A DNA stretch of 64,000 nt from Candidatus Bipolaricaulota bacterium. Lineage in GTDB: Bacteria; Patescibacteriota; Patescibacteriia; UBA11705; DATKZF01. The DNA is taken from NCBI GenBank assembly GCA_035528115.1, contig DATKZF010000001.1, positions 28,508 to 92,507 of the forward strand, read 5' to 3'. The translations under genes and the position numbers were made by a program. Shown here one piece after another: positions 1,434 to 57,150 of the stretch; within the stretch, counting starts at the first letter, position 1; each line of letters begins with the position of its first letter. The notes beneath the pieces were generated by a model, which did no database searches, had not been told where the DNA came from, and was given only the letters and a program-made list of their open reading frames with translations.

Positions 1434-1435
1434 AT

Positions 1436-1553
1436 ATTGTTACGAATTACAAGATTCTAAGGCATATAGCTATAGATGAATGTAATTCGTAACAAATAAC
1501 CTGAAAGCTAAATAGAATATTGTAATTCGTAACAATGCAACAATGAAGCAATG
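1436..1553. repeat. MITE-like repeat, family 1 copy A: 21-bp terminal inverted repeats TTGTTACGAATTACAAGATTC / GAATATTGTAATTCGTAACAA, ending in CAATGAAGCAATG
   Basis: Inverted repeats read directly; the same unit recurs at 4401-4573, 5903-6110 and 42169-42390. Confidence 0.7.
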
Positions 1554-1588
1554 TGCTATAATTAAAATGAATATACAAATAAAAACAC

Positions 1589-2977
1589 ATGCTCTACAAA
1601 CCATGCGGAGCGGCGCGAGAAGTGACCGGCTCCAGACATTTATTTGAAATAAATAAAAATAAAATACTGTTTGATTGCGGCTTGTTTCAGGGCGGCAAAA
1701 GGGGCGAAGCGGACAAGAAAAACCGTGAGTTTTTGTTTGATCCCAAGGAAATAAAAGCTTTGGTTTTAAGCCACGCGCACATAGATCACGCCGGCATCAT
1801 TCCGCGATTGGTAAAATTAGGTTTTAAGGGATTCATTCATTCTACGGCCATCACCAAGGAATTGGTGGAGCTATTGTTGCTTGATTCAGTAAAAATTCAA
1901 AAACAAGACGCCAGATACAGCGGCCGGCACCTGAATAGAAAAATCGAGCCGCTCTATAATGAGGTTGATGTCAGAAAGGCCGTCAGTTTGTTCGTTGTTC
2001 ATTCTTATCACGACGAGTTTAAGCCGATCAAAGGCGCGACCATCGAGTTTTTCGACGCCGGACATGTTTTGGGCTCGGCCATAACGTTGGCGAATTTCAA
2101 CGAAGCGTCTCGAAATTTGAAATTGATCTACACCGGAGATTTGGGCAGAAAAAATTTGCCTATCTTAAATGATCCGGAACAAGTCGAGAAAGGAGATGTT
2201 TTGATCACCGAAACGACTTATGCCAGCCACTTGCATGAATCAAATCTTCAAGCCAAGCAAGAGATCGAATGGATCATCAATGACGTGGTCGGCCGCGGTG
2301 GAAAAATAATCGTGCCAGGATTTTCGCTCGAGCGCACTCAGGAACTGGTTTATATTTTGAATCAGCTGTATCAGGAGAAGAAAATTCCGCCGGTGCCCGT
2401 TTTTGTGGACAGTCCGCTGTCAACCAAGATTTCCAAAGTGTTTATGAGGCATCCGGAAGCCTATGACAAAGAAACCGCGCAGGAGTTTTTGCAAAAAAAG
2501 AAAAGTCCATTTTATTTCGACAGTTTGAAATATATTACGGACAAGGAGGACTCGCAAAAATTGAATTCATTCAAAAAATCCTGCATTATAATTTCCGCTT
2601 CTGGCATGTGCGAGGCGGGCAGGATCGTGCATCACTTGAAGTTCAATGTCAGCGACGCCAAAAATTTGATCCTGGTCGTCGGCTACATGGCCAAAGGCAC
2701 CTTGGGCAGGCAATTGGTGGAAAAGCAAAATTATGTTTACATTTTGGGCGAAAAATATCCGCTGCGAGCGCAGGTGGTCGTGCTGAATTCATTTTCCGCT
2801 CACGCGGACAAGCCCGAGTTGCTTGAATTCGCCGGTAATATAAAGGGATTGAAAAAAATATTTTGCGTTCACGGCGAAGAAACGGAAAGTTTGGTGATGA
2901 GGGATAATCTGTATAATATCAATAAATTCACGGGTAAAGTCGAAGTCCCGAGATTGGGAGAAACTTTTATTTTGTGA
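1589..2977 (+). CDS. Metallo-beta-lactamase fold beta-CASP ribonuclease (RNase J / CPSF-like)
   Basis: HAHIDHAG MBL motif; beta-CASP architecture; 462 aa; stop overlaps the start of the downstream isomerase gene. Confidence 0.65.
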   Translation: MLYKPCGAAREVTGSRHLFEINKNKILFDCGLFQGGKRGEADKKNREFLFDPKEIKALVLSHAHIDHAGIIPRLVKLGFKGFIHSTAITKELVELLLLDSVKIQKQDARYSGRHLNRKIEPLYNEVDVRKAVSLFVVHSYHDEFKPIKGATIEFFDAGHVLGSAITLANFNEASRNLKLIYTGDLGRKNLPILNDPEQVEKGDVLITETTYASHLHESNLQAKQEIEWIINDVVGRGGKIIVPGFSLERTQELVYILNQLYQEKKIPPVPVFVDSPLSTKISKVFMRHPEAYDKETAQEFLQKKKSPFYFDSLKYITDKEDSQKLNSFKKSCIIISASGMCEAGRIVHHLKFNVSDAKNLILVVGYMAKGTLGRQLVEKQNYVYILGEKYPLRAQVVVLNSFSAHADKPELLEFAGNIKGLKKIFCVHGEETESLVMRDNLYNINKFTGKVEVPRLGETFIL

Positions 2978-2978
2978 T

Positions 2979-3911
2979 ATGAATTTCGTCGATCAAATTT
3001 ATAAAAAAATAGTCAATATTGAAATTCAGGGCGCGACGAGTGTCTGCGAGGCCGTGCTTTTGGCGCTGAAAAAAGAGTCGGCTGACAAAAAAATGAAAAC
3101 TTCCGCCGATTTGATAAGAAGTTTGCATCGGGTCGGCCATTATTTGAGCCGCGCCAGAGCGACCGAACCAATGGCCGAAAACGCGGTCAGGTTTGTCGAG
3201 CATCATTTGAGGCAAAATAGGGAAATGGAATTGAAAGAATTGAGAGTTTTAATAAAGCGCGGCATTGACGGATTTTTGTTTCGCTTGGCGACCAATAAAA
3301 AAAATATTCGCGATGTCGGCGAGCGGTTGATTGAAGACGAAGACAATGTCTTCACCCATTGCCATTCGTCAACGGTGATCGATGTTTTGGCCGAGGCGAA
3401 AAAGAACAAGAAGAAAATTCATGTTTTCAATACGGAAACCAGGCCTCTTTTTCAAGGCAGAATCACCTCAAAGGAATTGATTAAGAAAAAAATTGAAAAC
3501 ACGCAGGTCGTTGATTCGGCCGGACCGTTTTTCGTCAGTCAATACACAAAAGATTATGACATGGATGTTTTGTTGCTGGGTTGCGATGCTATTTCCCAAA
3601 GCGGTGACGCCGTGAATAAGATCGGTTCGCTCGGCTTGGCTTTGGCGGCCAAAGAAGCTGATATTCCCGTTTACATCGCCACGCAATCTTTAAAATTGGA
3701 TCTTGACGCCAAATATTTGAAAAATTTGGAAATTGAAAAGCGTCCAAGCAAGGAGATTTGGCCCGGCGCGCCGGAAGGCGTTGAAATAATCAATTACGCT
3801 TTTGATATTATTCCGGCCAAATACATTACCGGTTTCATTACCGAACTCGGCGTCCTAAAGCCGAAGCGTTTGGCCAAAAGCGTCAAAGCGGCTTACCCGT
3901 TTTTAATATGA
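2979..3911 (+). CDS. e2b2: Ribose-1,5-bisphosphate isomerase (eIF-2B alpha/beta/delta-like)
   Basis: eIF-2B-like family features; sits in an operon with form III RuBisCO and AMP phosphorylase, as in archaeal and CPR AMP salvage. Confidence 0.65.
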   Translation: MNFVDQIYKKIVNIEIQGATSVCEAVLLALKKESADKKMKTSADLIRSLHRVGHYLSRARATEPMAENAVRFVEHHLRQNREMELKELRVLIKRGIDGFLFRLATNKKNIRDVGERLIEDEDNVFTHCHSSTVIDVLAEAKKNKKKIHVFNTETRPLFQGRITSKELIKKKIENTQVVDSAGPFFVSQYTKDYDMDVLLLGCDAISQSGDAVNKIGSLGLALAAKEADIPVYIATQSLKLDLDAKYLKNLEIEKRPSKEIWPGAPEGVEIINYAFDIIPAKYITGFITELGVLKPKRLAKSVKAAYPFLI

Positions 3912-4354
3912 TTAAGTTGATCATTTGGGATTTGCTTGGCGTGCTCTATGAAAACGGGGAAGTCAATCCGTTTGCTCGGGCAATCTTAGCTGAATTTGAA
4001 AAAAAGAGTATTGAAAACGTTTGCGTCAGCAATCTTTCACCGGACACGGTTCATCGACTCGCTGAGCAATTAAATATCAAACATGTTATAATATGCCAAG
4101 AAGAAGGTTTTTCTAAGAAAGAAACGCCGGTTTACGAAAAGGTCTTGTCCGATTTTAAAGTAAAAGCAAATGAGGTTTTATTTATTGACGATAATGAGAG
4201 CAATTTGGCGGCCGCGCGAAAAATAGGTATAAAAACGGCCGTTTTTAGAGGAAAAAAGGGCAATGCGGATTTTGCGATTGATGATTTGGTAGATGTTTGG
4301 GGGATACTTGCACATATCATGGATCATGCCTGCCCGCCGACCTGTCCGCCGTAG
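3908..4354 (+). CDS. HAD-superfamily phosphatase (short); candidate nucleotidase or phosphoglycolate phosphatase
   Basis: DxD-type motif I (IIWDLLGVL) and motif IV (FIDDNESN); start overlaps e2b2 stop by 4 nt. Confidence 0.55.
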   Translation: MIKLIIWDLLGVLYENGEVNPFARAILAEFEKKSIENVCVSNLSPDTVHRLAEQLNIKHVIICQEEGFSKKETPVYEKVLSDFKVKANEVLFIDDNESNLAAARKIGIKTAVFRGKKGNADFAIDDLVDVWGILAHIMDHACPPTCPP

Positions 4355-4400
4355 CTTCACCGGAGGCGGAAGCTTAAGAGCGAAGGCGGGGATCACGTAT

Positions 4401-4573
4401 CATGGAGCATTGTTACGAATTAAAATCATCGAGTAGGCCGATTAATACATTTTACGAATTACATTCACTTATAGCTTTATGCCTAAGCATCTTGTAATAC
4501 GTAACAAATTACCTAAAAGCTAAATAGAATCTTGTAATTCGTAACAATGAAACAATGGAGCAATGGAGCAATC
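4401..4573. repeat. MITE-like repeat, family 1 copy B (~170 bp), ending CAATGGAGCAATGGAGCAATC, ~60 nt upstream of the rbcL start
   Basis: Near-identical to copy D (42169-42390); contains the TTGTAATTCGTAACAA core in both orientations. Confidence 0.7.
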
Positions 4574-4635
4574 TTCGCCTTGTAATCCCGGTTTCCGGTT
4601 TCAAATTACCCATTATCGATTACTAACCATAAAAT

Positions 4636-5901
4636 ATGTCCTCAATAAAATTCGTTGAAATCGGCTACAAACCAAAGGTTGAAAAGGAGCTGATCGCTAC
4701 TTTTTACATGGAGCCGCATAAAGTTAAATTTCACGAAGCGGCGGACGCCGTGGCCGGCGAAAGCTCAATCGGGTCTTGGACGGAGCTGAAAACCTTGAGT
4801 CCGAAAACCGCAGTTCGTCTGAAGGCGCGGGTGTTTTATATCAACGAGAAAAAAAAGATCATCAAAATAGCTTATCCCATGGATTTGTTCGAGAAAGGCA
4901 GTATCCCGCAGTTGCTTTCAAGTCTGGGCGGTAACATTTTCGGCATGAAAGCCGTGAAAAATTTGCGTTGGCAAGATATTGAATTTCCAAAAAAATACAT
5001 TGATTCTTTCATGGGACCGGCTTTCGGAATTGAAGGAATCAGAAAAATTTTAAAAGTGAAAAACAGAGTTCTTTTGGGCAGTATCATCAAGCCGAAAGTG
5101 GGTTTGTCCGCCTTGGCGCAAGCCAAATTATCCGCGGTCGTCTGGCTCAACGGCATTGACTTGATCAAAGACGATGAGAATTTGACGGACATGGCTTTCA
5201 ATCGATTCGAAGATCGAGTGAAAAAAGTTTTTGAATGGAAGCGCAAAGTGGAAAAGGAAACCAAACAAGAAAAACTTTACGCCTGCAATATTACGGCCAC
5301 GCCTGATGAAATGCTCAGACGCGCCAAGTTGGTTAAAAAATACGGAGGCAGGTGCGTAATGATCGATTTGGTCTCGGTCGGTTTGGACAATGTCCAGTAT
5401 TTGCGAAAACAAAAATTAGGTTTGATAATTCACGGCCATCGAGCCGGTCACGCCATGTTCACTCGGTACAAAAAGCACGGCATGAGCATGCTTGTTTTGG
5501 CCAAGTTGTCCAGATTGGCCGGCATTGATCAATTGCACACGGGCACGGTTGTCGGTAAAATGGAAGGCAATGAAGAAGAGGTCATGACAGTCAATAATTT
5601 GCTTAAAGAAGATTGGGCCGCGTATAATGTCGTCAGAGAAGATTGGAGCAATATTAAGCCGGTGATGCCGATAGCGTCGGGCGGCTTGCATCCCGGGTTA
5701 TTGCCGAAATTGATTGAGATATTGGGGCAGGATTTGATTGTTAATTTCGGCGCGGGCATTCACGGACATCCTGACGGCTCGGCTGCCGGCGCCAGAGCCT
5801 GCTATCAAGCGGCCGAAGCGATCAGTAAAGGCATTGATTTGAAAAAATACGCTGAGGATCATGTTGAATTGGCCAGAGCGTTGGAGTATTGGAAATCCTG
5901 A
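4636..5901 (+). CDS. rbcL: Ribulose-1,5-bisphosphate carboxylase large subunit, form II/III (AMP-salvage type)
   Basis: KPKVGLS, GIDLIKDDE and GGLHPG motifs; 421 aa; no small subunit; typical form III N-terminus. Confidence 0.85.
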   Translation: MSSIKFVEIGYKPKVEKELIATFYMEPHKVKFHEAADAVAGESSIGSWTELKTLSPKTAVRLKARVFYINEKKKIIKIAYPMDLFEKGSIPQLLSSLGGNIFGMKAVKNLRWQDIEFPKKYIDSFMGPAFGIEGIRKILKVKNRVLLGSIIKPKVGLSALAQAKLSAVVWLNGIDLIKDDENLTDMAFNRFEDRVKKVFEWKRKVEKETKQEKLYACNITATPDEMLRRAKLVKKYGGRCVMIDLVSVGLDNVQYLRKQKLGLIIHGHRAGHAMFTRYKKHGMSMLVLAKLSRLAGIDQLHTGTVVGKMEGNEEEVMTVNNLLKEDWAAYNVVREDWSNIKPVMPIASGGLHPGLLPKLIEILGQDLIVNFGAGIHGHPDGSAAGARACYQAAEAISKGIDLKKYAEDHVELARALEYWKS

Positions 5902-5902
5902 C

Positions 5903-6110
5903 GGATGTTACGAATTACAAGATTCACTTTGGCTTACAAACGGTTGTTACGAATTACAAGATTCTAAGGCATATTTTCTAGCTATAGATGAATGTAATTC
6001 GTAACAAATAACCTAAAAGCTAAACAGAATATTGTAATTCGTAACAGATAACCTGAAAGCTAAATAGAAGATTGTAATTCGTAACATAAACGTATTCGTA
6101 ATAAACGATT
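5903..6110. repeat. Nested or tandem cluster of family 1 MITE-like repeats (at least two units) between rbcL and the AMP phosphorylase gene
   Basis: Repeated TGTTACGAATTACAAGATTC and ATGTAATTCGTAACAAATAACCTNAAAGCTAAANAGAANATTGTAATTCGTAACA units. Confidence 0.7.
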
Positions 6111-6223
6111 AACCAAAGACCAAGGCTAGCTTATTAGCCGTAATGATTTGTAACGTATTCGTAACAAATATAACGCCAAGGCTAGCTAATTTAGAAGCAA
6201 TTATTTGTAACATGTAACGTATG
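6110..6223 (+). promoter_or_regulatory. Tandem family 2 leader element (two CCAAGGCTAGC...ATTTGTAAC units) running into the AMP phosphorylase ATG
   Basis: Same two-unit architecture found directly upstream of the VIT-family gene at 49191-49274. Confidence 0.5.
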
Positions 6224-7723
6224 GCTTTTTACCTAAAATGCAAAAAACTAGATTTCTCCACGGGCGACAAGCAAATCGTGGTGATCAATGATGAAGAAGC
6301 TGAAAGCTACGGCATTTATCCGGGAGATCGCTTGCTTTTGCAATGGAGCAAAAATAAAAAAGCGGCGGTGATCGCGGATACCACGGCCTCCAAAGTCAGG
6401 CCCGGCGAAATCGGTTTGTTTTCGGAAGTTTGGCGCAAATCCAATGTTGAATCGGGAGATATAGTGGAAGTGAATATCATGTCCAGACCTTTGTCCATTG
6501 AAACGATCAGAAAAAAGCTTTTGGGAAAACCCGTTACGTATGAAGAAATTTACGCGGTAATTAAGGATATTGTGGACGGCACGCTGGGTACCGTAGAGAC
6601 CACCTATTACGCGGCTTCAAGTTTCGTCAAAGACTATTCGATAGACGAACTTTATTATGTGGCCAAGGCCATGGCCGAAACGGGCGAGCAAATGGAATTG
6701 AAAGAGCGGATGGTGGACAAACATTCGGTCGGCGGTTTGGCCGGCAACAGAGTGACCCCTCTGGTCGTGTCCATTGTGGCTTCCTTGGGTTTGTATATTC
6801 CCAAAACGTCTTCTCGGGCGATCACGTCTCCGGCCGGCACGGCCGACACCATGGAAGTGATTTGTCCCGTTTCTTTTTCAATGGCGGAAATAAAAAAAAT
6901 AGTCAAAAAAACTCACGGCTGTTTTGTTTGGGGCGGCGGTCTTAATCTCGCGCCCGCCGATGATAAAATCATTAAAGTCTCCAGGCCGCTGGCGTTTGAG
7001 CCTTACGATAAAATGATTGTCAGCATTTTAGCCAAAAAGGTGGCCATGGGAGTTGATGATTTGGTTTTGGATATTCCGGTCGGTCCTTCGACCAAAGTGC
7101 CGGACATGGTTAAAGCCAACATGATTGAAAAAAAATTCATGGCCCTAGGCAAACGATTCGGCATGAAAATCAAAGCGGTGAAAACCAAAGCTTTGGAGCC
7201 GGTGGGCGACGGTATCGGGCCGGCCCTGGAAGCGCGCGATATTTTCCGCGTTTTGCAAAGGCATAAATTTCGACCGCTTGATTTGGAGAAAAAAGCCATT
7301 TTATTAGCGGGCGAGTTGCTCGAGCTCAATGGTTTCGCGAAAAAAGGCCATGGCAAAGCCATGGCCATGCAACAGCTTAAATCAAGCGCGGCCTGGGAGA
7401 AAATGAATGAAATCGTGGTGGCGCAAGGAGGCAAAGCCAACCAGCATTCCGAGGATTTCACTTCCGGAGCCAAGCGATATGAAATTCACGCGAAAAAGTC
7501 CGGCAAAGTGACGGCCATTGACAATAAAGCGATCAATGAAATTTGCATGAATTTGGGCGCTCCGAGCGACAAATTGGCCGGACTGCACCTCCATGTTCAT
7601 TATGGCGCCAAGGTTAAAAAAGGCGATAAATTGTTCACCGTTTACGGCTCATCGGATGACAGGCTGAAATTGGGCGTTTTGGCCAGCCGGGAGGTGGAAA
7701 TTTTCAAGATAAGCAAGAAATAA
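6221..7723 (+). CDS. deoA: AMP phosphorylase (thymidine phosphorylase family with archaeal-type N-terminal extension)
   Basis: 500 aa; pyrimidine-nucleoside phosphorylase fold plus the N-terminal extension typical of AMPpases; syntenic with rbcL and e2b2. Confidence 0.75.
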   Translation: MAFYLKCKKLDFSTGDKQIVVINDEEAESYGIYPGDRLLLQWSKNKKAAVIADTTASKVRPGEIGLFSEVWRKSNVESGDIVEVNIMSRPLSIETIRKKLLGKPVTYEEIYAVIKDIVDGTLGTVETTYYAASSFVKDYSIDELYYVAKAMAETGEQMELKERMVDKHSVGGLAGNRVTPLVVSIVASLGLYIPKTSSRAITSPAGTADTMEVICPVSFSMAEIKKIVKKTHGCFVWGGGLNLAPADDKIIKVSRPLAFEPYDKMIVSILAKKVAMGVDDLVLDIPVGPSTKVPDMVKANMIEKKFMALGKRFGMKIKAVKTKALEPVGDGIGPALEARDIFRVLQRHKFRPLDLEKKAILLAGELLELNGFAKKGHGKAMAMQQLKSSAAWEKMNEIVVAQGGKANQHSEDFTSGAKRYEIHAKKSGKVTAIDNKAINEICMNLGAPSDKLAGLHLHVHYGAKVKKGDKLFTVYGSSDDRLKLGVLASREVEIFKISKK

Positions 7724-16676: not shown

Positions 16677-16680
16677 GCCT

Positions 16681-16738
16681 GGATTCCCGCTTTCGCGGGA
16701 ATGACAGGTCAGGTTAGTCTGTGCGGGAATGACAGGCC
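16681..16738. repeat. Inverted partial copy of the family 3 repeat end (GGATTCCCGCTTTCGCGGGAATGACAGG)
   Basis: Reverse complement of the repeat terminus. Confidence 0.6.
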
Positions 16739-16835
16739 TAAATGAGCCTGCATGGAATGGAAAGCCCGGACGAGTCTGAGAAAACTAATTATTATGCCGA
16801 CCCTTTATCGTCATTCCCGCGAAAGCGGGAATCCA
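16725..16835. repeat. MITE-like repeat, family 3, copy 2 (direct repeat of 16250-16360)
   Basis: ~95% identical over ~110 bp; accounts for spurious ORF 16742..17047. Confidence 0.7.
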
Positions 16836-16871
16836 GAAAACACAGTTTGAAATTAAACCAAACAAATACTT

Positions 16872-17819
16872 ATGAAACATTTAATCTCACTCAAAGAAAA
16901 TTCGAAAGAAGACATTTTGAAAATGATCGATCTGGCTCAAAAACTGAAACAAAAAAAGAACAACGGCGAATTGACGCGCTATCTGGAAGACAAGACTTTG
17001 ATCATGCTTTTTCAGAAAACTTCCACCCGCACCCGTTTGTCCTTTGAATCTGCCATGACCGAGCTGGGCGGTCACGCGATTTTTCTTGACTCGCGCACCA
17101 CGCAGTTTTCTTTGTGCGATTTTCGAGATGAGATTCAGGCGGTGATGCGATTTGGCGCGACCTTGATGTTTCGCGCGCAAAAGGCGGCTGACGTTATGAC
17201 CGCGGCTTCTTTCAATAAAATTCCGGTCATTGACGCTTGCAGCGAGAAATATCATCCGGCTCAGGCGATCACTGACATGCTCACGATGATTGAAAAGAGC
17301 GGGGGACTTGAAAACATAAAAAAAGTGGTTTGGCTGGGAGTTGAAAATAACGTCATGAATACTTTGATGCTGGTTTGCGTGAAATTAGGCGTCAAATTCA
17401 CCATTATAGCGCCGGAAGCTGATATTGACAGCGTTGATGAGGAGTTAAAGCGCCAAGCCGCGGAAACGAGCCTGGTCGAGCGGACGCTGGATTTGGCCGA
17501 GGGGTTAAAAGACGCGGATTTTGTCCACACCGACACTTGGATGAATATGGAGTTTTTTGACAACGGCCAAGTCAAACCGCAAATGCAAGCGGAATATGAA
17601 AGAAGAAAAGCCACGTTTTCTCCTTATCAAATCAACGCCGATTTAATAAATAAATACTGTCCTCAAGCCAAAATAATGCACTGCATGCCTTGCCACATCG
17701 GTTATGAAATTTCTCGCGACGCCATGGATCATCCAAACAGCGTTGTCTTTGATCAAGCGGAAAATAGGCTTCACGCTCAAAAAGGCATTTTAATGTGGCT
17801 TTTGGACAGGGAAGTTTAA
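16872..17819 (+). CDS. argF: Ornithine carbamoyltransferase-family enzyme (divergent substrate-binding motif)
   Basis: STRTR carbamoyl-phosphate motif; HCMPC (HCLP-like) motif; 315 aa; TDTWMNME replaces the canonical DxxxSMG. Confidence 0.6.
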   Translation: MKHLISLKENSKEDILKMIDLAQKLKQKKNNGELTRYLEDKTLIMLFQKTSTRTRLSFESAMTELGGHAIFLDSRTTQFSLCDFRDEIQAVMRFGATLMFRAQKAADVMTAASFNKIPVIDACSEKYHPAQAITDMLTMIEKSGGLENIKKVVWLGVENNVMNTLMLVCVKLGVKFTIIAPEADIDSVDEELKRQAAETSLVERTLDLAEGLKDADFVHTDTWMNMEFFDNGQVKPQMQAEYERRKATFSPYQINADLINKYCPQAKIMHCMPCHIGYEISRDAMDHPNSVVFDQAENRLHAQKGILMWLLDREV

Positions 17820-31580: not shown

Positions 31581-32444
31581 ATGAGAGAGCAATTATTGAT
31601 AATGCCTTTTGATCACCGGTCATCATTGATCAGGGATTCGATAGGCGTCAAAACCAATGTTGCCGTCCAAAAGGCCACTTTAAAGCTTTTTAAAGAAATC
31701 ATTTACGCGGCTTTTTTGATTGTTCAAAAAAAATATCCCCGAAAAAATGACTTGGCGATTTTGGTTGATGAAAAATATGGAGCAGCTATCCTGAAAGATG
31801 CCAAAAAAAGAAAGATAAAAATTTGCTATACCGTTGAAAAAAGCGGAGGCAAGGAGCTGGCTTTCGAATATGGCAATTCATTCGGCGCCCATATCGCAAA
31901 ATTCCAGCCTGATTTTGTAAAAGTTTTGGTCAGATACAATCCTTCGAATAAAGAAATCAACAAGAGGCAGTTGAAAAAGTTGAAGCGACTCGGAGAGTTT
32001 TGCGAAAAGAAAAATTATAGATTATTATTGGAATTGCTGGTGCCGCCGACGAAAAATGATTTGGCAATTGCCGGTTCACTCGCGGCGTTTGATAAAAATT
32101 ATCGCATAAAAAAGACGGTCGACGCGATCGGAGAAATAAAAAAGGCCGTAAAAGTGGATGTTTGGAAAATGGAAGGCTTTGATAAGTCGAATTGGCGAAA
32201 GATTTTCAAGGTTGTGCCCGAATATTCCAAAATTATCGTTTTGGGCAGAGGAGAAAATGAAAAGAACGTGATGAAATGGATTATGGACGCCAAAATATTT
32301 TCCAAAATAATAGGTTTCGCCGTCGGCCGGACTATTTTTCTCAAACCTTTGCTCGAATACCATAAAAAACGGGTATCGAAAAAGCGAGCTGAGGAACTGA
32401 TCGCGGCCGATTTTTCAAAATTCGTGAAGTTGTGGAATTCATAA
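31581..32444 (+). CDS. DUF2090 / LacD-like class I aldolase-family TIM-barrel protein
   Basis: N-terminal MPFDHRSS motif as in DUF2090 and tagatose-bisphosphate-aldolase-like proteins; 287 aa. Confidence 0.4.
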   Translation: MREQLLIMPFDHRSSLIRDSIGVKTNVAVQKATLKLFKEIIYAAFLIVQKKYPRKNDLAILVDEKYGAAILKDAKKRKIKICYTVEKSGGKELAFEYGNSFGAHIAKFQPDFVKVLVRYNPSNKEINKRQLKKLKRLGEFCEKKNYRLLLELLVPPTKNDLAIAGSLAAFDKNYRIKKTVDAIGEIKKAVKVDVWKMEGFDKSNWRKIFKVVPEYSKIIVLGRGENEKNVMKWIMDAKIFSKIIGFAVGRTIFLKPLLEYHKKRVSKKRAEELIAADFSKFVKLWNS

Positions 32445-34157: not shown

Positions 34158-35408
34158 ATGACTGAAATATTATCAAAATGCAAAATTAAAGAATTTGACC
34201 TGCTTTTAGCTGAAAAAAAGAACGTTTTGGCTCTCGGACCCGAATCGGCGGGTAATTTCTCCGTTTATATCAACGGAAAAGTTTATTATTGCTCAGATTT
34301 TGGCGATTTATTGGAGGAAGAGCGTTTTGATGTCTATAAAAAGGCTTTATTTGAGCTTATTGATAGAAATAACCTGATTCCCGATATTATTCGCGTTGAC
34401 CTTCATCCGGCCTATAAAACCTCAAAATTGGGCGAAGAATTGGCTCTTAAATTCAACTGCCGCCTGGAAAGAGTCCAGCACCATATAGCGCACGTTTATT
34501 CGGCTGTATTTGATCAATTTGCGGGCTACGAATCTACCAAAGATTTACCAATCCTGCGAAAACAAGGAGAATACGAATCTACGAATACTTTACGAATACG
34601 ACGAAAGCATGGAGATATGACTCTACCGACAAAATTTTTAGGCATAGCCTGCGACGGCACCGGCCTTGGGTTGGACGGCAAAATATGGGGAGGAGAAGTA
34701 TTTCAATATCAAATATCAAATATTAAAAATAAACTAACGCGAATCGGGCATCTTGAAAACCAGTTGCTGTGCGGAGGCGACGCGGCCATTAAAGAGCCGG
34801 CTCGAATGCTACTTTCCATACTTTTAAATATAAAAAAGCCGGCTGAGGTTTGGCCGATTTTTAGCGCATTTTACACCGAACAACAATTTGATACATTGGT
34901 AAAAATGCGTGAACAAAAATTTAATTCACTGGAGACTTCAAGCGCGGGTAGGGTGCTGGACGCGGTTTCGGTTTTGCTCGGATTTTGCGGCAATGAGAGA
35001 AAATACAAGCATGAGCCCATTGACTTGCTGGAGAAAAATTCAACGCAGCCTTTTGAGCTGGAGCCTGTGATAACTGAAGAACAAAGAAACAAAGAAACCG
35101 AGGAACAATGGAGCAATGGAGCAATGAAGCAATATGTCCTTAACACCTCTTATTTATTTGAATGGTTGCTTGAGAATTTAGATAAAGATAAGGGCAGACT
35201 GGCGGCGACAGTTCAAAAATATATTATCGAAGGCTTGATTGAGATAGCCAAAAGAACTGATCCGAATTTGCCGATTTATTTTAGCGGTGGAATGGCCAAT
35301 AATCGAATTATGAGTCAAATTGCCATGAATAATGGCTTAATCATGGCTGAAAACATCGATCGGGGAGACAATGCCTTGAGTTTGGGGCAGTTGACTTTAT
35401 TTTTGTAA
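34158..35408 (+). CDS. hypF: HypF-like carbamoyltransferase, Kae1/TsaD-like domain only (no acylphosphatase, Zn-finger or YrdC domains)
   Basis: QHHIAHV His motif, GIACDGTGLGLDGKIWGGE, C-terminal FSGGMANNRIM; in-frame insertion of the MITE terminal motif at 35103-35135. Confidence 0.6.
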   Translation: MTEILSKCKIKEFDLLLAEKKNVLALGPESAGNFSVYINGKVYYCSDFGDLLEEERFDVYKKALFELIDRNNLIPDIIRVDLHPAYKTSKLGEELALKFNCRLERVQHHIAHVYSAVFDQFAGYESTKDLPILRKQGEYESTNTLRIRRKHGDMTLPTKFLGIACDGTGLGLDGKIWGGEVFQYQISNIKNKLTRIGHLENQLLCGGDAAIKEPARMLLSILLNIKKPAEVWPIFSAFYTEQQFDTLVKMREQKFNSLETSSAGRVLDAVSVLLGFCGNERKYKHEPIDLLEKNSTQPFELEPVITEEQRNKETEEQWSNGAMKQYVLNTSYLFEWLLENLDKDKGRLAATVQKYIIEGLIEIAKRTDPNLPIYFSGGMANNRIMSQIAMNNGLIMAENIDRGDNALSLGQLTLFL

Positions 35409-35444
35409 AATTATAATATTCGCTTTCAACAAAGGAGGGCGATC

Positions 35445-35901: not shown

Positions 35902-35930
35902 TTGACTTAATTATGCAAAATTGCTTAAAT
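35902..35930 (+). promoter_or_regulatory. Putative promoter TTGACT-N17-TTAAAT for ORF 35966, followed by AGAGGAGGA Shine-Dalgarno-like site
   Basis: Read directly. Confidence 0.35.
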
Positions 35931-36223: not shown

Positions 36224-36226
36224 TTC

Positions 36227-40270: not shown

Positions 40271-41857
40271 TTACATTTGAAGCAGATTGGTTCCGGTCAT
40301 TTCCGGAGCCGGGGGAATGCCGACTTGCGCTAAAATTGTGGGCGCCACGTCAGAGAGAATGCCCAGCGGGCTGTTTAAGGAAAGATCCCCGTTTTCACCG
40401 GTTTGAATGGTTTGACCGGCGTGTTTATTGCTCACGGCGATGAATGGCACCGGATAAATGCTGTGCTCTTTGTCTATTTTGCCGGTTTGAAGATTAACCA
40501 ATTCTTCGGCGTTGCCATGATCTCCGACAATAAAGGCCATTCCTTGCTTGGCCAAAATCGCGGAAATGACTTTTTCCAAACATGAGTCAACTGCGTTAAC
40601 GGCTGAGACTGTGGCTTGCAAATTGCCCGTATGGCCGACCATGTCGGGGTTGGCGTAATTAATGGCCATGAATTGATATTTATCCGAAGCCAAGGCTTTT
40701 AATATTTCATCGGTCACTATATTGGCGGACATTTCAGGCTGTTTATCATAACTGTCAACCAGCGGCGACGGAATGAGCATTCTGTCTTCTCCGGGGAATT
40801 TTTCTTCGATTTGTCCGTTCAAAAAATAAGTGACATGCGCGTATTTTTCCGTTTCCGCGATATGGAGCTGTTTGAAACCGTTGTCGCTGAAGACTTTGGC
40901 CAAGGGATTGGCAATGGTTTGCCGCGGATAGGAGACTTTAACCGGCAAACCCGTTTTGTAATCCGTCAAAGTGACGAAGGTCAGTCCGTCAATGAAATTT
41001 CGTTGGAATTTATCAAAATTCGGTTCAACGAAAGCTTGCGTCAATTGCACGGCTCGATCAGCTCTGAAATTGAAGAAAATCACCGCGTCTTCTTCGGAGA
41101 CCATGGCGAGCGGCTGGTTTTTTTTGTCCACCACAGCGCAAGGCGGGAATTCTTCGTCGAATATTTGATTTTGATAAGACTCTTTTAACGTTTTTAACGG
41201 ATCGGTGGTGGAAATGGCTCCTTTGCCTTCGGCAATGGCCGAATAAGCCTGGCTTGTCTTATCCCAATTTTTATTTCTGTCCATGCCGAAAATTCTCCCA
41301 GTGATCGAAGCGACCTCTCCGCATTTTTGTTTTTTGCAAAATTTCATGATGTCTTCCAAAAATCCCGCGCCGGAGTCTCTGGCAGAGTCGCGGCCGTCAA
41401 GAAACAGATGTAAAAAAGTTTGTTTTTTCAATTTGTTTTCTTTGCAAAGCTTTATCAGCGCTTCCAAATGCCGCTGGTGCGCGTGCACGCCTCCGTTGCC
41501 GAGCAAGCCGATCAAATGAATTTTCGATTTGTTTTGAACGGCTTTTTGAACGGCCGCAAGCAGATTTTCATTTTTGAAAAAATTCCCGTCTTCGATTTCT
41601 TTATCGATTCTGGGCAAGCTTTGATAATGAAGAACGCCGGAGCCGATATTCAAATGGCCCACTTCGGAATTGCCGACTTCACCCCAAGGCAGTCCCACGT
41701 TCACGCCGGACGCTTCAAGCAGCATGGTCGGATAAGATCCGATGAGTTTTTTGTAAAACGGAGCCGAGCTGAGGCTGATGGCGTTCGATTGGCCGGGAGT
41801 GGCAATGCCAAAGCCGTCCAGCACAATCAAAACAACGGGATTGTATGATAACTGCAT
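40271..41857 (-). CDS. gpmI: 2,3-bisphosphoglycerate-independent phosphoglycerate mutase
   Basis: VVLIVLDGFG and GNSEVGHLNIGSG motifs; 528 aa. Confidence 0.85.
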   Translation of the reverse strand: MQLSYNPVVLIVLDGFGIATPGQSNAISLSSAPFYKKLIGSYPTMLLEASGVNVGLPWGEVGNSEVGHLNIGSGVLHYQSLPRIDKEIEDGNFFKNENLLAAVQKAVQNKSKIHLIGLLGNGGVHAHQRHLEALIKLCKENKLKKQTFLHLFLDGRDSARDSGAGFLEDIMKFCKKQKCGEVASITGRIFGMDRNKNWDKTSQAYSAIAEGKGAISTTDPLKTLKESYQNQIFDEEFPPCAVVDKKNQPLAMVSEEDAVIFFNFRADRAVQLTQAFVEPNFDKFQRNFIDGLTFVTLTDYKTGLPVKVSYPRQTIANPLAKVFSDNGFKQLHIAETEKYAHVTYFLNGQIEEKFPGEDRMLIPSPLVDSYDKQPEMSANIVTDEILKALASDKYQFMAINYANPDMVGHTGNLQATVSAVNAVDSCLEKVISAILAKQGMAFIVGDHGNAEELVNLQTGKIDKEHSIYPVPFIAVSNKHAGQTIQTGENGDLSLNSPLGILSDVAPTILAQVGIPPAPEMTGTNLLQM

Positions 41858-42168: not shown

Positions 42169-42390
42169 TCATGGAGCCAATGGAGCATTGTTACTAATTA
42201 CAATCATCCAGTAGGCCGATTGATATATAATTACGAATTACAAAAAGCTGATTAGCTTTAAACGATTCTTACTAATTACTTTCACCTATATCCTTAAGCC
42301 TGAGAATGTTGTAATTCGAAACAAATAACCTAGAAGCTAAATGGAAGATTGTAATTGGTAACAATAAAACAATGAAGCAATGAAGCAATC
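42169..42390. repeat. MITE-like repeat, family 1 copy D (~220 bp); its terminal CAATGAAGCAATGAAGCAATC supplies the start codon of the next gene
   Basis: Collinear with copy B (4401-4573). Confidence 0.7.
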
Positions 42391-42685
42391 TTTTCTCCAA
42401 ATATATATGCAAAAAGAAAAAGAAAACGAAAAAAAATCCATCAAGCTTGAAGTGCTTGAGAAATTGTCCGCGCTTATTATCGCGGGCTTTGGTTTGGTCG
42501 CGGCCTTGGCTTGGAATGACGCCATTAAGGCGTTGTTCAATAAGTTTTTTCCGGCGCCTTCCGGCAATCTGGTCGCCGGATTGATTTACGCGGTCGCCAT
42601 AACCGCGATTGTGGTAATTGTCACCATCCAATTCGGCCGGATGATCAGGCGCGCCAAAAACGTGGTTGATAAATTGGACAAATAA
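42380..42685 (+). CDS. Small membrane protein (hypothetical); ATG lies inside the repeat terminus
   Basis: ORF; two TM helices. Confidence 0.4.
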   Translation: MKQSFLQIYMQKEKENEKKSIKLEVLEKLSALIIAGFGLVAALAWNDAIKALFNKFFPAPSGNLVAGLIYAVAITAIVVIVTIQFGRMIRRAKNVVDKLDK

Positions 42686-56250: not shown

Positions 56251-56342
56251 GAGCGCGATTTTGTTGTTGACAAAATGTTGAATATGGCGTATTATTAACT
56301 CTTGTCGTTGATTGCTGGAAACCGCAACTGTTGGAGGGCGGA

Positions 56343-57150
56343 AATGACGCTTATTTTCGATGAACGAGTTCAGGTCGAGCTTCTAGGTAGGGCATGGGGT
56401 GATTTTCACCCGACGAAGAGTGCGGAGGCTCACATACTCCTTGTCAGGGCCTCGGTCAGTCACAAGTTCGCCGAGCTGTTTTTGCCCAGCGTTGCTTTCA
56501 CGAACAGGGTGGCGGGCAGGCTGGACTCAAACGCTTTCCGTCTGGACGATGTACCTCCCTTGGCGTGGAGGACAACCACGAAGGCTGATGGCGGAATCAT
56601 CGTCAACGATCCGAGTGTGGCCGTGGGCATCTGCAACGCGGATTGCCACATCGGAGTGATCTACGAGCCACGTAGGCACATTCTGTGCGTTGTGCACTTG
56701 GGCCTCAAGTGCTTCCATCGACCGGACGGAGAGCCGAGCATTCTCCAGGAGGCCATCAAGGTGCTCCGTTGCGACTCTTCGGACCTTCTCTTTACCTTCG
56801 GCGGCGGAGCGGGCCCGTGTTGCTTCGGCTACGACCTCCATGATCCCAAGTTCGGCGATCAGAACATTCGCCAGGCCCAGGATCTCCGGAATCGGTTCGG
56901 AGAAGACGCGGTCAAGGGTGAAGTCGAGCGCGGGCCGCGTCGCGGTTTTGCCGCGCATGATCTTCCGACCATGATTTTGCGGCACGCGCAAGATCTCGGC
57001 TTGGCGATTCAAGACATCGATTTCACCTGTACTTCCTGCGCCGGCTTGAAGGTGGAGGGGGAGAACGAAGTCGGCGAGCGCATGTTCTGGTCGAATTTGC
57101 GAGGAGACGTGAACAACCGCAATTTCTTTTTCGCGCGCTTGGTCGGGTAG
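56343..57150 (+). CDS. YfiH/PgeF/LACC1-family purine-nucleoside enzyme (DUF152 laccase-domain protein); GC ~58% against genome ~40%
   Basis: ADCHIGV...VVHLGLKC and GGGAGPCCFGYD match the family motifs; GGAGGG Shine-Dalgarno-like site before the ATG. Confidence 0.55.

Follow-up and report, generated by a model that had tools for sequence, protein, structure and literature searches.

The locus raises the question of whether five genes on one strand together encode a route from AMP to 3-phosphoglycerate, and what the two among them that do not belong to the core of that route contribute. Within the 64,000-nucleotide stretch of DNA analysed here (the window), five ORFs on the + strand at positions 1589–7723 encode a β-CASP RNase, an e2b2 isomerase, a small HAD hydrolase (mini-HAD), a RuBisCO large subunit (RbcL) and an AMP phosphorylase (AMPpase). 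All five are present at the positions given by the initial annotation, with matching domain content. That annotation also described overlapping stops and starts at two junctions; the 4-nt ATGA overlap between e2b2 and the mini-HAD gene (3908–3911) is real, whereas at the RNase/e2b2 junction the TGA stop ends at 2977 and the ATG begins at 2979, leaving a 1-nt spacer with the genes adjacent and not overlapping. As gaps of 282 bp and 320 bp flank rbcL, tight coupling is limited to the first three genes. The close relatives of the cluster, and of the ±10 kb around it, are all from Patescibacteria; the NCBI label of the source metagenome-assembled genome is 'Candidatus Bipolaricaulota', which is not a CPR lineage.

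Table 1. Features of the AMP-module region and of related genes elsewhere in the window.
Feature	Position	Strand	Basis
Upstream region, repeat copy 1 (1436–1553; one reverse and two forward TGTAATTCGTAACA motifs)	1434..1588	.	
β-CASP metallo-β-lactamase RNase, TTHA0252 type (462 aa)	1589..2977	+	Pfam domains, solved relative
Ribose-1,5-bisphosphate isomerase e2b2, eIF-2B-related family (310 aa)	2979..3911	+	profiles, solved structures
Capless mini-HAD hydrolase (148 aa)	3908..4354	+	domains, alignment, predicted model
HAD–rbcL gap, repeat copy 2 (about 4400–4575; two reverse and two forward motifs; (CAATGGAG)n at right end)	4355..4635	.	
RuBisCO large subunit, Form III, CPR clade III-c (421 aa)	4636..5901	+	profiles, NJ tree
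rbcL–AMPpase gap, repeat copy 3 (5904–6105; two reverse and three forward motifs, 40-nt period)	5902..6220	.	
AMP phosphorylase including AMPpase-specific N-terminal domain (500 aa)	6221..7723	+	TIGR03327, 4GA5
UMPH-1 nucleotidase with one in-frame stop	36262–37122	-	
gpmI, cofactor-independent phosphoglycerate mutase	40271..41857	-	iPGM_N 3.3e-72 and Metalloenzyme
Fourth, more degenerate repeat copy, between the small-ORF and gpmI unit (-) and a DUF5654 gene (+)	42170..42395	.	
LigD 3'-phosphoesterase	49954–50418		
PgeF/YfiH-like (Cu-oxidase_4) protein	56302..57150	+	

RbcL comprises the RuBisCO_large_N and RuBisCO_large domains and scores 518 bits against the NCBIfam Form III equivalog model, above its cutoff of 497. 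The carboxylase motif residues are all kept and are invariant across 37 relatives. A RuBisCO-like protein (form IV) was rejected on these complete motif residues and on the RLP and MtnW models, which fall far short of their cutoffs (233 versus 409 bits and 188 versus 513 bits). The nearest named relatives are annotated 'Form III-c' (60–69% identity), and in a neighbour-joining tree RbcL is nested in a CPR clade that holds all four depositor-named III-c sequences, with the archaeal sequences outside. By sequence, RbcL is thus a Form III enzyme of the CPR-specific III-c clade, rather than the 'form II/III' type named initially.

The e2b2 protein consists of an IF-2B domain and is favoured as a ribose-1,5-bisphosphate (R15P) isomerase over MtnA, both by profiles (198 bits, below the NCBIfam equivalog cutoff of 314, versus 154 bits) and by comparison with solved structures (TK0185/PH0208, 137 bits; MtnA, 93 bits). 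Substrate-contact residues have been reported for the solved archaeal enzyme PH0208 (PMC5789824). The window protein has the catalytic residues Cys128 and Asp203 and keeps six of seven other PH0208 contact side chains, including those that bind the 1- and 5-phosphates; the exception is Arg22, a 1-phosphate-binding residue that is Gln in the window protein and in nearly all RuBisCO-linked homologues. The same catalytic and contact residues recur in 21 such homologues, with Arg for Lys at one site in a single locus. A true eIF-2B/MtnA isomerase was rejected on the profile and structure scores together with the retained PH0208 residues. Unlike the archaeal R15P isomerase, which has an AMP-activator site, the window protein is without that site. 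The AMPpase (Glycos_trans_3N, Glycos_transf_3 and PYNP_C, with the AMPpase-specific N-domain) passes the TIGR03327 cutoff of 535 by less than 1 bit (535.8 bits), and aligns with the Thermococcus kodakarensis AMPpase (PDB entry 4GA5) over residues 6–497 with 375 bits.

Profiles and solved relatives thus uphold the core enzyme identities behind the proposed AMP to 3-phosphoglycerate pathway, and by homology their activities are expected to match those of the Thermococcus and Pyrococcus counterparts. Core synteny of e2b2, RbcL and AMPpase is present in about 30 CPR loci. This core is a known system, already reported from genomes with a Form III-c enzyme (Jaffe et al. 2019; PMC6389311). The RNase and the stripped-down HAD are add-ons to it, and no published description of the linked RNase, the mini-HAD or the repeats was found.

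The RNase contains Beta-Casp (8.6e-41), RMMBL and Lactamase_B domains. Its best solved relative is the Thermus thermophilus RNase TTHA0252 (266 bits), with which its HxHxDH, H, D, E, H and H motifs align; against the Cas14 model it reaches 417 bits, below the cutoff of 800. Inspected by eye, the N-terminus shows no sign of a signal peptide. The association of a β-CASP gene with e2b2 and rbcL recurs widely: 10 of the 27 assessable CPR loci have a same-strand copy no more than 2 kb upstream. The RNase is not obligatory, since 16 of the 27 have no β-CASP gene nearby, and none of the archaeal loci examined has one upstream. It may be directly adjacent, separated by a DUF1294 gene or by MFS transporter and PIN protein genes, or upstream of rbcL with e2b2 following; in two RNase-bearing loci (L045 and L052) RbcL falls outside the III-c clade. 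The 1-nt coupling is specific to the window genome, because the RNase–e2b2 spacing in relatives is 44–176 bp.

Possibly, though with less than even probability, the RNase is a housekeeping, RNase J-like enzyme of RNA processing or decay whose gene merely happens to precede the AMP module, with no role in feeding it. This would fit the rRNA pseudouridine synthase gene that precedes it in both the window and L001, its absence from most of the CPR loci, spacers in relatives that leave room for a separate promoter for e2b2, and the occurrence of TTHA0252-type enzymes in bacteria without the AMP pathway. Against it stand the same-strand upstream placement in at least five architectures with RbcL from two clades, the 1-nt spacer in the window genome, and a probability below 1% that, in a genome of roughly 1 Mb, a given single-copy gene is found this close (2 kb) by chance. 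The recurrent gene neighbourhood points instead to the RNase as a putative source of 5'-NMPs for the pathway.

The mini-HAD matches the Pfam families HAD_2 and Hydrolase. Its nucleophile is Asp8, followed by Ser41, Lys70 and Asp94-Asp95; the Asp+2 position, the general acid/base and second Asp of motif I, is occupied by Leu10. D8, K70, D94 and D95 do not vary across 20 aligned mini-HADs, and S41 hardly does. The predicted structure is a capless Rossmannoid fold (pLDDT 94) that resembles the KdsC/YrbI-type capless phosphatases, and a C-terminal tail of ~9 residues (CPPTCPP) is found in the window genome only. Orthologues occupy the same position in L001, L002/L003, L007 and L182, so that the gene is confined to near relatives of the window and not conserved beside e2b2 and rbcL across CPR. 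The mini-HAD is an accessory specific to this lineage: a predicted Mg-binding enzyme of the YihX-like HAD-IA subfamily, with an Asp nucleophile but neither a cap nor Asp+2. The initial label 'HAD phosphatase' is only partly right, as the protein lacks a cap, Asp+2 and specific similarity to phosphoglycolate phosphatases. It is most likely a phosphohydrolase that would act on a ribose-phosphate or nucleotide intermediate; given the missing Asp+2, the absence of a cap and its much faster evolution than its neighbours (40–44% versus 66–85% identity), it may be only weakly active or have another activity.

Tentatively, the mini-HAD could prepare substrates instead of acting on pathway intermediates, either as a nucleotidase or nucleic-acid-end phosphatase that removes phosphates at positions other than 5' (on 3'-NMP, pNp or 3'-phosphorylated RNA ends), or by making nucleosides for a PgeF-like phosphorylase. 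Large or polymeric substrates are typical of capless (C0) HADs, for example PNKP and CTD phosphatases. In L007 and L182 a PgeF-like gene lies between e2b2 and the HAD gene, which is translationally coupled to it; the window PgeF/YfiH-like protein is a distant homologue of this operon protein (28% identity). Second-tier mini-HADs, 20–32% identical over the full alignment, occur in dUTPase-NUDIX-HAD-Fpg, PolA-HAD-Fpg and NUDIX-HAD clusters. However, metallo-β-lactamase RNases yield 3'-OH ends, so that the neighbouring RNase needs no 3'-phosphatase, and a 5'-nucleotidase would destroy the AMPpase substrate.

Slightly less probable is action on a pathway sugar phosphate, either by hydrolysing the anomeric 1-phosphate of R1P or R15P (a shunt to ribose-5-phosphate and PRPP) or by clearing RuBisCO inhibitors, for example xylulose-1,5-bisphosphate (XuBP), in a repair role like that of CbbY. 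The gene lies between e2b2 and rbcL, a PRPP synthetase is found within the module in L010, and the nearest characterized subfamily relative is YihX, an α-D-glucose-1-phosphate phosphatase whose N-terminus (FDLGNV) likewise lacks Asp+2. HAD phosphatases acting on RuBP or XuBP exist, and the mini-HAD has a weak match to an NCBIfam RuBP-5-phosphatase model (E = 1.2e-4), while a capped relative of it matches CbbY. Yet the comparison enzymes all recognize the sugar via a cap domain, which the mini-HAD is predicted to lack, and specific-model scores are 22–37 bits versus cutoffs of 295–330. A phosphoglycolate phosphatase clearing the oxygenase by-product, one of two options first offered for this gene, is very improbable despite the adjoining RuBisCO gene and weak NCBIfam matches (E = 2.4e-4), as these reach 20 bits versus cutoffs of 225–327, such phosphatases use a cap, the gene is missing from most Form III-c operons, and the hosts are regarded as anaerobic fermenters.

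The gaps around rbcL, and a palindromic repeat within them, went unmentioned in the initial annotation. The repeat motif has 16 matches in the 64-kb window, versus 0.43 expected. Repeat copy 1 is followed by an extended -10-like TGCTATAAT at 1554–1562, 26 nt before the RNase ATG, and TGnTATAAT stands at the equivalent relative place in L001, L002, L005 and L006. The HAD–rbcL gap has an RNA fold z of -2.9 and measures 61–88 bp in L001 and L002; the rbcL–AMPpase gap folds at -86.8 kcal/mol (z = -7.15), contains degenerate ATTCGTAA(C/T) sites up to 6168 and measures 12–121 bp in L001, L002 and L005. These repeat-filled gaps may split the cluster into separate transcription units.

The TGTAATTCGTAACA arrays are unlikely to serve as operators for a regulator co-controlling the AMP module and gpmI in a nucleotide-to-glycolysis regulon. 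All 16 matches lie upstream of the RNase, rbcL or AMPpase gene or at the gpmI/DUF5654 divergent promoter, the AMP module contains all 11 exact 8-mer cores, and in L005, a different genus-level genome, 4/5 cores fall within the 190 bp that precede the RNase gene. However, the closest relatives (L001, L002, L006 and L007) are without the motif at these promoters, and the repeat modules vary in copy number. In the Logan assembly of the same genome (L004), the sequence is broken at the repeats on either side of rbcL, as a multi-copy element predicts. A metagenome scan recovered the two-motif pattern in 95 contigs, none of which carries AMP-module genes; downstream are genes for SerRS, FtsK, RRF, YebC, a histidine kinase, an integrase and a surface protein. 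Because related repeats precede such unrelated genes, the palindrome is no pathway operator but a generic element of the REP/MITE-like kind. In the window genome this dispersed modular repeat has colonized all three of the cluster's promoter-proximal spaces; if transcribed, it would form long hairpins, and it could uncouple rbcL and the AMPpase gene from the first three genes or adjust how strongly they are expressed relative to those.

Elsewhere in the window, the gpmI, LigD, UMPH-1 pseudogene and YfiH/PgeF genes listed initially are all present, and the recurring theme of nucleotide scavenging drawn from them is factually grounded in gene content while resting on scattered genes. GpmI provides the next step for 3-phosphoglycerate and is physically outside the cluster.

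Taken together, the cluster probably encodes the CPR Form III-c version of the carboxylating AMP (pentose-bisphosphate) pathway, with an RNase feed and a HAD accessory. A cytoplasmic TTHA0252-type RNase would supply 5'-NMPs from RNA, and the AMPpase would convert nucleoside 5'-monophosphate and phosphate to free base and ribose-1,5-bisphosphate. The e2b2 isomerase would then produce ribulose-1,5-bisphosphate, from which, with CO2 and water, the non-photosynthetic Form III-c RuBisCO would form two molecules of 3-phosphoglycerate. These would enter lower glycolysis via gpmI, encoded 34 kb away, making the locus an RNA-to-3-phosphoglycerate catabolic operon.

The cluster comprises genes for a beta-CASP ribonuclease, an IF-2B family protein (e2b2), a small HAD-fold protein (mini-HAD), a RuBisCO large subunit (RbcL) and an AMP-phosphorylase-type protein (AMPpase), all of which were recovered on the forward strand with exactly the boundaries proposed in the initial annotation. 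[quoted passage not shown] Of the two stop–start overlaps that had been described, the one between e2b2 and the HAD gene is present (ATGA), but the ribonuclease and e2b2 genes are separated by a one-base spacer, the TGA ending at 2977 and the ATG lying at 2979. Neither of the next two junctions is tight: 282 bp separate the HAD gene from rbcL, and rbcL is followed by a 320-bp spacer before the AMPpase gene.

Coordinates of features in the window and at compared loci (L numbers denote loci or contigs of relatives or metagenomes)
Feature	Sequence	Position	Strand	Basis
Palindromic repeat copy	window	1436-1553		motif search
Metallo-beta-lactamase / Beta-Casp / RMMBL ribonuclease	window	1589-2977	+	Pfam, NCBIfam
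IF-2B family protein (e2b2)	window	2979-3911	+	Pfam, NCBIfam
HAD-fold protein, 148 aa	window	3908-4354	+	Pfam, NCBIfam
C-terminal tail of the HAD-fold protein	window	4329-4354
Palindromic repeat copy	window	4400-4575		motif search
RuBisCO large subunit	window	4636-5901	+	Pfam, NCBIfam
Palindromic repeat copy	window	5904-6168		motif search
AMP-phosphorylase-type glycosyltransferase-3 protein	window	6221-7723	+	Pfam, NCBIfam
27-nt inverted repeat, two arms	window	16679-16705, 16810-16836
Aspartate/ornithine carbamoyltransferase gene	window	16872-17819
DUF2090/DeoC-like aldolase-family protein	window	31581-32444
Hydrogenase-maturation-type group	window	34158-39170
HypF_C-like ORF	window	34158-35408
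Repeats within the HypF_C-like ORF	window	34527-34637, 35080-35133
UMPH-1-type pyrimidine 5'-nucleotidase	window	36262-37122	-
gpmI	window	40271-41857	-
Palindromic repeat copy, degenerate	window	42170-42395		motif search
Stand-alone LigD 3'-phosphoesterase	window	49954-50418
PgeF/YfiH-like protein	window	56302-57150
GTTAC-based 8-nt-period inverted arrays	L002	9912-10000
PgeF/YfiH-like (Cu-oxidase_4) gene	L007	6391-7239
8-nt-period inverted arrays, unrelated sequence	L007	7700-8000, 9254-9475
DUF1294 gene	L010	2387-2665
PRPP synthetase	L010	6369-7286
DUF1294 gene	L012	2660-2947
MFS transporter and PIN protein	L025	5216-7036
PAP2-like DUF212 gene	L025	9244-9678
Heptamer arrays	L088	6760-7030
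Heptamer arrays	L092	400-690
Heptamer arrays	L099	2600-2790, 3330-3500
dUTPase-NUDIX-HAD-Fpg cluster	L180	4152-6300
PgeF/YfiH-like (Cu-oxidase_4) gene	L182	769-1629
PolA-HAD-Fpg cluster	L183	2305-6345
NUDIX-HAD cluster	L184	2492-3471

With 518.4 bits, RbcL clears the 497.45-bit cutoff of the Form III equivalog model TIGR03326. Its matches to solved structures score 404 bits with the P. horikoshii Form III enzyme, 354 bits with that of T. kodakarensis and 257 bits with the Form II/III enzyme of M. burtonii, whose solved chain has 474 residues, compared with 421 in RbcL. The closest relatives in a collection of 5.8 billion proteins are from Patescibacteria (85, 81 and 78% identity), followed by proteins of Falkowbacteria, Kuenenbacteria and Komeilibacteria (60–70% identity); four relatives carry the depositors' name 'Form III-c' and are 60–69% identical to the window protein. 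In a neighbour-joining tree, built without bootstrap support, RbcL falls inside a CPR clade together with all four III-c sequences, and the archaeal sequences lie outside it. The earlier label 'II/III' is therefore withdrawn on the basis of the Form III score, the low similarity to M. burtonii and the tree.

The active site was examined for the carbamylated Lys with its Asp/Glu (KDDE), KPK, HxHR, H...K (GTVVGK), SGG, GxG and an N-terminal E and N, motifs that we take, from their sequence and from established knowledge, to correspond to the positions of the spinach numbering. E42, N100, K152, K154, K178, D180, E181, H268, R269, H272, H301, K308, S348, G349, G350, G372 and G374 are all present, and the motif residues are invariant in 37 clade members; the sole deviation is the conservative Ala373 in place of the clade-consensus Gly. 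This complete set, with scores well under the cutoffs of the MtnW and RuBisCO-like protein (RLP) models (233 bits, cutoff 409, and 188 bits, cutoff 513), rules out a Form IV RLP; the OiaX model gives 218 bits against a cutoff of 700.

For the e2b2 protein the top-scoring model is TIGR00511, the R15P isomerase equivalog, although its 197.8 bits are under the cutoff of 314.1; the MtnA model (154 bits) and the aIF-2B models rank behind it, and the eIF-2B_rel subfamily cutoff is exceeded (191.1 against 185.85). Solved R15P isomerases from T. kodakarensis and P. horikoshii match at 137 bits, compared with 93 bits for MtnA structures. The residues of e2b2 were mapped onto the contact list of PH0208, in which R22, R65, Q166 and K215 contact the 1-phosphate, S137 and K240 the 5-phosphate and N214 the sugar (PMC5789824). 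The catalytic C128 and D203 are kept together with six of these seven contacts (R60, Q159, K214, S130, K239 and N213), as they are in 21 other RuBisCO-linked homologues, one locus having Arg for Lys at one site. The seventh contact, Arg22 of PH0208, is Gln17 in e2b2, and Gln occupies this position in 21 of the 22 RuBisCO-linked homologues, Asgard archaeal copies included. The model and structure scores and the conserved R15P isomerase residues exclude MtnA, and the gene is likewise not a true eIF-2B.

The allosteric AMP site of PH0208 is formed by R124, R190, K194, R229, W231 and N209, and none of the six is conserved in e2b2. Arg124 and Arg190 are lost in all the CPR copies and kept in the archaeal copies sampled (loci L001–L058 versus L031–L067). 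This activator site is a regulatory rather than a catalytic feature, and its loss suggests that the bacterial isomerase may be regulated differently. The AMPpase passes TIGR03327 marginally (535.8 bits, cutoff 535) and aligns to T. kodakarensis 4GA5 over residues 6–497, including an N-terminal domain of about 85 residues that thymidine/pyrimidine phosphorylases lack; pyrimidine phosphorylases align only from residue ~93.

The Thermococcus kodakarensis pathway consists of the AMPpase TK0353, the R15P isomerase TK0185 and the Form III RuBisCO TK2290 (Sato 2007 and Aono 2015, as cited in PMC6389311). The window encodes the same three enzymes with full-length homology, sharing the N-terminal AMPpase domain, the catalytic Cys/Asp and phosphate-binding residues of the isomerase, and a Form III RuBisCO with complete active-site motifs. 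It differs in that its RuBisCO belongs to the CPR-only III-c clade, at about 50% identity to archaeal sequences, in that its isomerase lacks the two activator-site arginines, and in that its genes form a cluster of the bacterial type; the sampled archaeal loci mostly have the genes unlinked or e2b2 in divergent orientation. Form III-c was defined by Jaffe et al. 2019, who found e2b2, RuBisCO and deoA closer together in III-c genomes than in those with other forms, and sometimes consecutive or fused (PMC6389311). Our sample of 80 reference-genome loci reproduces this clustering, about 30 CPR loci having e2b2–RbcL–AMPpase as their standard order, and the window shares both the clade and the consecutive order. 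The core is thus a re-discovery of a published system and the gain is incremental. What the locus adds lies around it: a recurrent beta-CASP ribonuclease, a lineage-specific capless HAD protein, and an interruption by a dispersed palindromic repeat.

The ribonuclease has the features that define beta-CASP enzymes, namely metallo-beta-lactamase motifs 1–4, HxHxDH among them, the A (D/E), B (H) and C (H) motifs of the beta-CASP region and an RMMBL domain, with the Pfam Beta-Casp and RMMBL models above their cutoffs. Its best match among solved structures is Thermus thermophilus TTHA0252 (266 bits over residues 4–437; PDB 2DKF and 3IEK–3IEM), a relative of RNase J and CPSF-73 with the same domain order, and its HAHIDH, AGH, GDLG, ETTY, SAHAD and VHGE segments align to the metal-binding and beta-CASP motifs of that enzyme. 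TTHA0252 is not known to have a link with nucleotide catabolism genes. The top NCBIfam match is Cas14 of type VII CRISPR, at 417 bits against a cutoff of 800. This match covers the nuclease core only (profile positions 6–433 of 612), and the C-terminal ~180 residues of Cas14 are missing. Given also that no annotated neighbour is a cas gene, the neighbours being RluB, e2b2 and HAD, a Cas14 identity is ruled out; the window has no reported tandem array of CRISPR-like period. The partial match fits an origin of Cas14 from a stand-alone beta-CASP ribonuclease of this kind.

The ribonuclease recurs at RuBisCO loci well beyond the immediate relatives. The order RNase–e2b2–HAD–RbcL–AMPpase–DsbA is kept in L001 (85% RbcL identity) and in L002 and L003 (78%), and L007 (67%) has the window order plus one extra gene; L005 and L006 (70 and 68%) have RNase–e2b2–RbcL–AMPpase–DsbA and lack the HAD gene. 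Full-length homologues at 37–49% identity lie upstream on the same strand in more distant CPR loci of varied architecture, with a DUF1294 gene between the ribonuclease and e2b2 (L010 and L012), with genes for an MFS transporter and a PIN protein in between (L025), or directly adjacent (L045); in L052 the ribonuclease precedes rbcL and e2b2 follows it. The RbcLs of L045 and L052 lie outside the III-c clade. The ribonuclease is found at most 2 kb upstream in 10 of the 27 assessable CPR loci, 3.3 kb downstream in one and not at all in 16, and it was upstream of the module in none of the archaeal loci sampled. The check for conservation beside e2b2 and rbcL that had been proposed for both accessory genes thus finds the ribonuclease recurring across CPR and the HAD gene only within the near clade. 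Other insertions in the CPR modules include a PRPP synthetase gene between rbcL and the AMPpase gene in L010 and a PAP2-like DUF212 gene in L025.

No published description of the ribonuclease in this context was found: the text of Jaffe et al. 2019 (PMC6389311) does not contain the word 'ribonuclease', neither a ribonuclease or other nuclease nor a phosphatase or HAD is brought up in this connection by Wrighton 2016, and a full-text literature search combining beta-CASP with AMP phosphorylase gave no relevant result. The presence of the gene on the same strand in several architectures argues for functional coupling, in which the enzyme would feed the pathway by degrading RNA to 5'-NMPs for the AMPpase. 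Judged from gene neighbourhood, we put this at an even chance. A housekeeping ribonuclease that takes no part in the pathway stays a serious rival, because the spacing between the ribonuclease and e2b2 genes is 44–176 bp in relatives, the upstream neighbour is an rRNA pseudouridine synthase gene, and most CPR loci are without the ribonuclease gene.

The mini-HAD is far more restricted. A single-sequence word-index search returned only the protein itself and one weak match, so orthologues were recovered through synteny and HMM or profile searches only; tblastn of the loci missed the L007 orthologue, which an HMM search caught. Among 5.8 billion proteins clustered at 90% identity, the strict family amounts to about nine clusters scoring 129 bits or more, after which scores drop sharply to generic HADs. 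Its members occur only in the near clade of the window, always just upstream of rbcL, and overlap e2b2 in the window, L001 and L002; in L007 and L182 the overlap is instead with a PgeF/YfiH-like gene inserted after e2b2, which in L182 runs into the start of the HAD gene. The protein evolves fast (40–44% identity, against 66–85% for its neighbours). In the window genome alone it ends in a tail of about nine residues (…HACPPTCPP) encoded by a 12-nt duplication (CCTGCCCGCCGA ×1.9) that adjoins a repeat insertion, of which the tail may be a by-product.

An AF2 model (pLDDT 94) consists of the Rossmannoid core alone, and the interval of about 25 residues between motifs I and II leaves no room for a C1 or C2 cap, the domain that folds over small substrates. 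Foldseek aligns the model over its full length to the capless KdsC/YrbI and AQ2171 and to capped HADs over the core only; the KdsC-type capless proteins and HAD cores are structurally closest, and no KdsC-type sequence signature is present. The sequence was compared with the HAD motifs I (DxDx(T/V)), II (S/T), III (K/R) and IV (DD or GDxxxD). Across 20 mini-HADs, D8, K70 and D94–D95 are invariant and S41 nearly so. Motif I lacks its second Asp, the general acid/base at Asp+2, and has in its place Leu10, which aligns to D10 of PH1655, and phosphatase chemistry is consequently plausible but not assured.

The best 150 matches of an exhaustive profile search against 1.84 billion representatives were listed; the available ones and four family members found earlier gave 148 sequences for examination. 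Of these 148, 46 are capless (≤155 residues), with F, Y, L or S at the Asp+2 position, and 78 are capped relatives (175–215 residues). The two groups have a common N-terminus, MIKAIIFD-x-[F/Y/G]-G-V, which identifies the mini-HAD, at the level of sequence, as an offshoot, by loss of the cap, of a large HAD-IA subfamily that has no Asp+2. The nearest characterised member of the capped subfamily, whose proteins of about 190 residues share the motif I pattern D-x-[F/Y/G/L]-G-V, is Escherichia coli YihX, an alpha-D-glucose-1-phosphate phosphatase with the N-terminus FDLGNV. With this HAD-IA (variant 3) type the mini-HAD shares the Rossmannoid core, the Asp nucleophile, and Ser, Lys and Asp-Asp at motifs II, III and IV, respectively, whereas YihX has ~80 residues between motifs I and II.

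Retention of the Mg-binding Asp-Asp makes phosphoryl transfer a better fit than chemistry of the dehalogenase type, and the genomic contexts point to nucleotides or ribose phosphates. The mini-HAD is thus somewhat more probably than otherwise a phosphohydrolase acting on a nucleotide or ribose phosphate, and every specific substrate considered is at best a doubtful candidate. Phosphoglycolate phosphatase, one of the activities first proposed, is the least supported, because the corresponding models give 20.2–20.5 bits against cutoffs of 225–327, the cap is missing and the gene is absent from most III-c operons. More remote mini-HADs, about 20–31% identical to the window protein over the full alignment, are found in clusters with dUTPase, NUDIX, PolA or Fpg genes (L180, L183 and L184), and a fourth has an uninformative context. 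These settings suggest a possible role in nucleotide-pool sanitation or in repair of 3'-phosphate ends after Fpg cleavage.

Palindromic repeats, which the initial annotation did not mention, fill the region upstream of the ribonuclease gene and both large gaps of the cluster. The element is modular, built of ~40-nt units (40–42-nt period) that contain TGTAATTCGTAACA, in reverse orientation at the left and forward at the right, and its right end is (CAATGRAG)n. Allowing up to two mismatches, TGTAATTCGTAACA has 16 matches in the window, against 0.43 expected, in four places only; the fourth copy, which is degenerate, lies between a small ORF and gpmI on one side and a divergent DUF5654 gene on the other. 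As RNA, the rbcL–AMPpase gap is predicted to fold into a nested hairpin (-86.8 kcal/mol, z = -7.15), and the HAD–rbcL gap gives z = -2.9. The corresponding gaps measure 12–121 bp in relatives, so the element has expanded the window spacers, and the Logan short-read assembly of the same genome (L004) is interrupted at the repeats that flank rbcL on either side. At the gathering threshold Rfam reports four tRNAs only and no known RNA family in the gaps. The intergenic DNA has diverged too far for comparison with the 'empty' sites of L001 and L002 to reveal clear target-site duplications; no transposase or RAYT associated with the repeat was identified, and a literature search on CPR intergenic repeats found nothing relevant.

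All the window copies flank genes of the route from AMP through 3-PGA to 2-PGA, and L005 has four of its five core 8-mers within 190 bp upstream of its ribonuclease gene. The possibility that the arrays are operators of an AMP-pathway regulon was therefore tested, and it is rejected as the leading reading. The nearest relatives are without the TGTAATTCGTAACA motif, and a scan of metagenomes, which did not recover the source genome, found the two-motif pattern on 95 contigs, none with AMP-module genes. The scan gave 23 clusters that are modular and not microsatellites, and their forward motifs mostly point toward a gene start within ~110 bp; the genes downstream are unrelated, encoding SerRS, FtsK, RRF (twice), YebC, a histidine kinase, an integrase and a surface protein. 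The repeat is best read as a generic, promoter-proximal family of these bacteria that resembles REP/BIME elements or MITEs. With the REP/BIME repeats of enterobacteria, the Correia/NEMIS repeats of Neisseria and MITE-like repeats it shares a short motif of alternating orientation, intergenic placement within operons and beside promoters, predicted long hairpins, a variable number of modules, and presence or absence between close relatives; the TGTAATTCGTAACA motif is unrelated to the REP/BIME and Correia/NEMIS families. Such copies could provide hairpins or promoters and could segment the operon transcript.

Inverted arrays with an 8-nt period also occur at the HAD–rbcL and rbcL–AMPpase positions of L002, where they are based on GTTAC, and at the same intergenic positions of L007, where their sequence is unrelated; hairpin-forming arrays may recur at these spacers beyond chance. 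A second repeat class, with (TAATTCG/TAACTCG)n heptamer arrays often inverted around a ~100-bp core and several copies per contig (L088, L092 and L099), looks like a MITE with microsatellite arms. Within the window, the HypF_C-like ORF contains a 45-nt-period repeat and (GGAGCAAT)×4, the same 8-mer as at the ends of the palindromic element, located inside or between the two Pfam domain matches of the ORF; either a repeat inserted in frame or a wrongly called gene could account for this. A different palindromic element occupies the gap that precedes the aspartate/ornithine carbamoyltransferase gene: a perfect inverted repeat of 27 nt, CTGGATTCCCGCTTTCGCGGGAATGAC, whose arms stand 104 nt apart.

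Elsewhere in the window, the gpmI, LigD 3'-phosphoesterase, PgeF/YfiH and UMPH-1 genes named in the initial annotation were all found. The single in-frame stop of the UMPH-1-type gene (…NFPNIY*VTNKFEWD…) could mark a pseudogene, a sequencing error or recoding. The PgeF-like protein is encoded 50 kb from the module and is a distant homologue (28% identity) of the in-operon copy of L007 and L182. A DUF2090/DeoC-like aldolase-family protein is also encoded, as is a hydrogenase-maturation-type group with a HypF C-terminal Kae1-like, an AIR-synthase-related (HypE-like) and a HypD protein. NCBI names the source assembly 'Candidatus Bipolaricaulota bacterium'. All close homologues come from Patescibacteria/CPR and synteny extends over ±10 kb with GCA_049319825.1, a member of the Patescibacteria, so the sequence comparisons support the CPR attribution well, and the Bipolaricaulota label is probably a binning or classification artefact.

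CPR lineages account for much of bacterial diversity; their metabolism is minimal, and they are believed to subsist on host material or necromass. The RuBisCO AMP pathway offers them one of only a few ways of passing from nucleotides into ATP-yielding glycolysis. The source of the nucleotides had been left open, and the ribonuclease gives a concrete, testable answer: with its gene at the head of the operon, the proposed flow would run from RNA through NMPs, R15P and RuBP to 3-PGA, and the four-enzyme set of ribonuclease, AMPpase, e2b2 and RbcL could be reconstituted in vitro. The mini-HAD represents a compact enzyme type without a cap or a general acid/base, found in nucleotide-related genomic contexts. 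More tentatively, and less probably than not, the pathway may in a sizeable fraction of CPR form the end of a dedicated RNA-catabolic operon, in which the beta-CASP enzyme, acting as an exoribonuclease, would turn the cell's own, host or scavenged RNA into 5'-NMPs that are channelled to 3-PGA; in one lineage the mini-HAD, a new capless HAD class without Asp+2, would condition the nucleotide or ribose-phosphate pool. If this is true, RNA would be a primary source of carbon and energy for these episymbionts, beyond its role as a salvage substrate.
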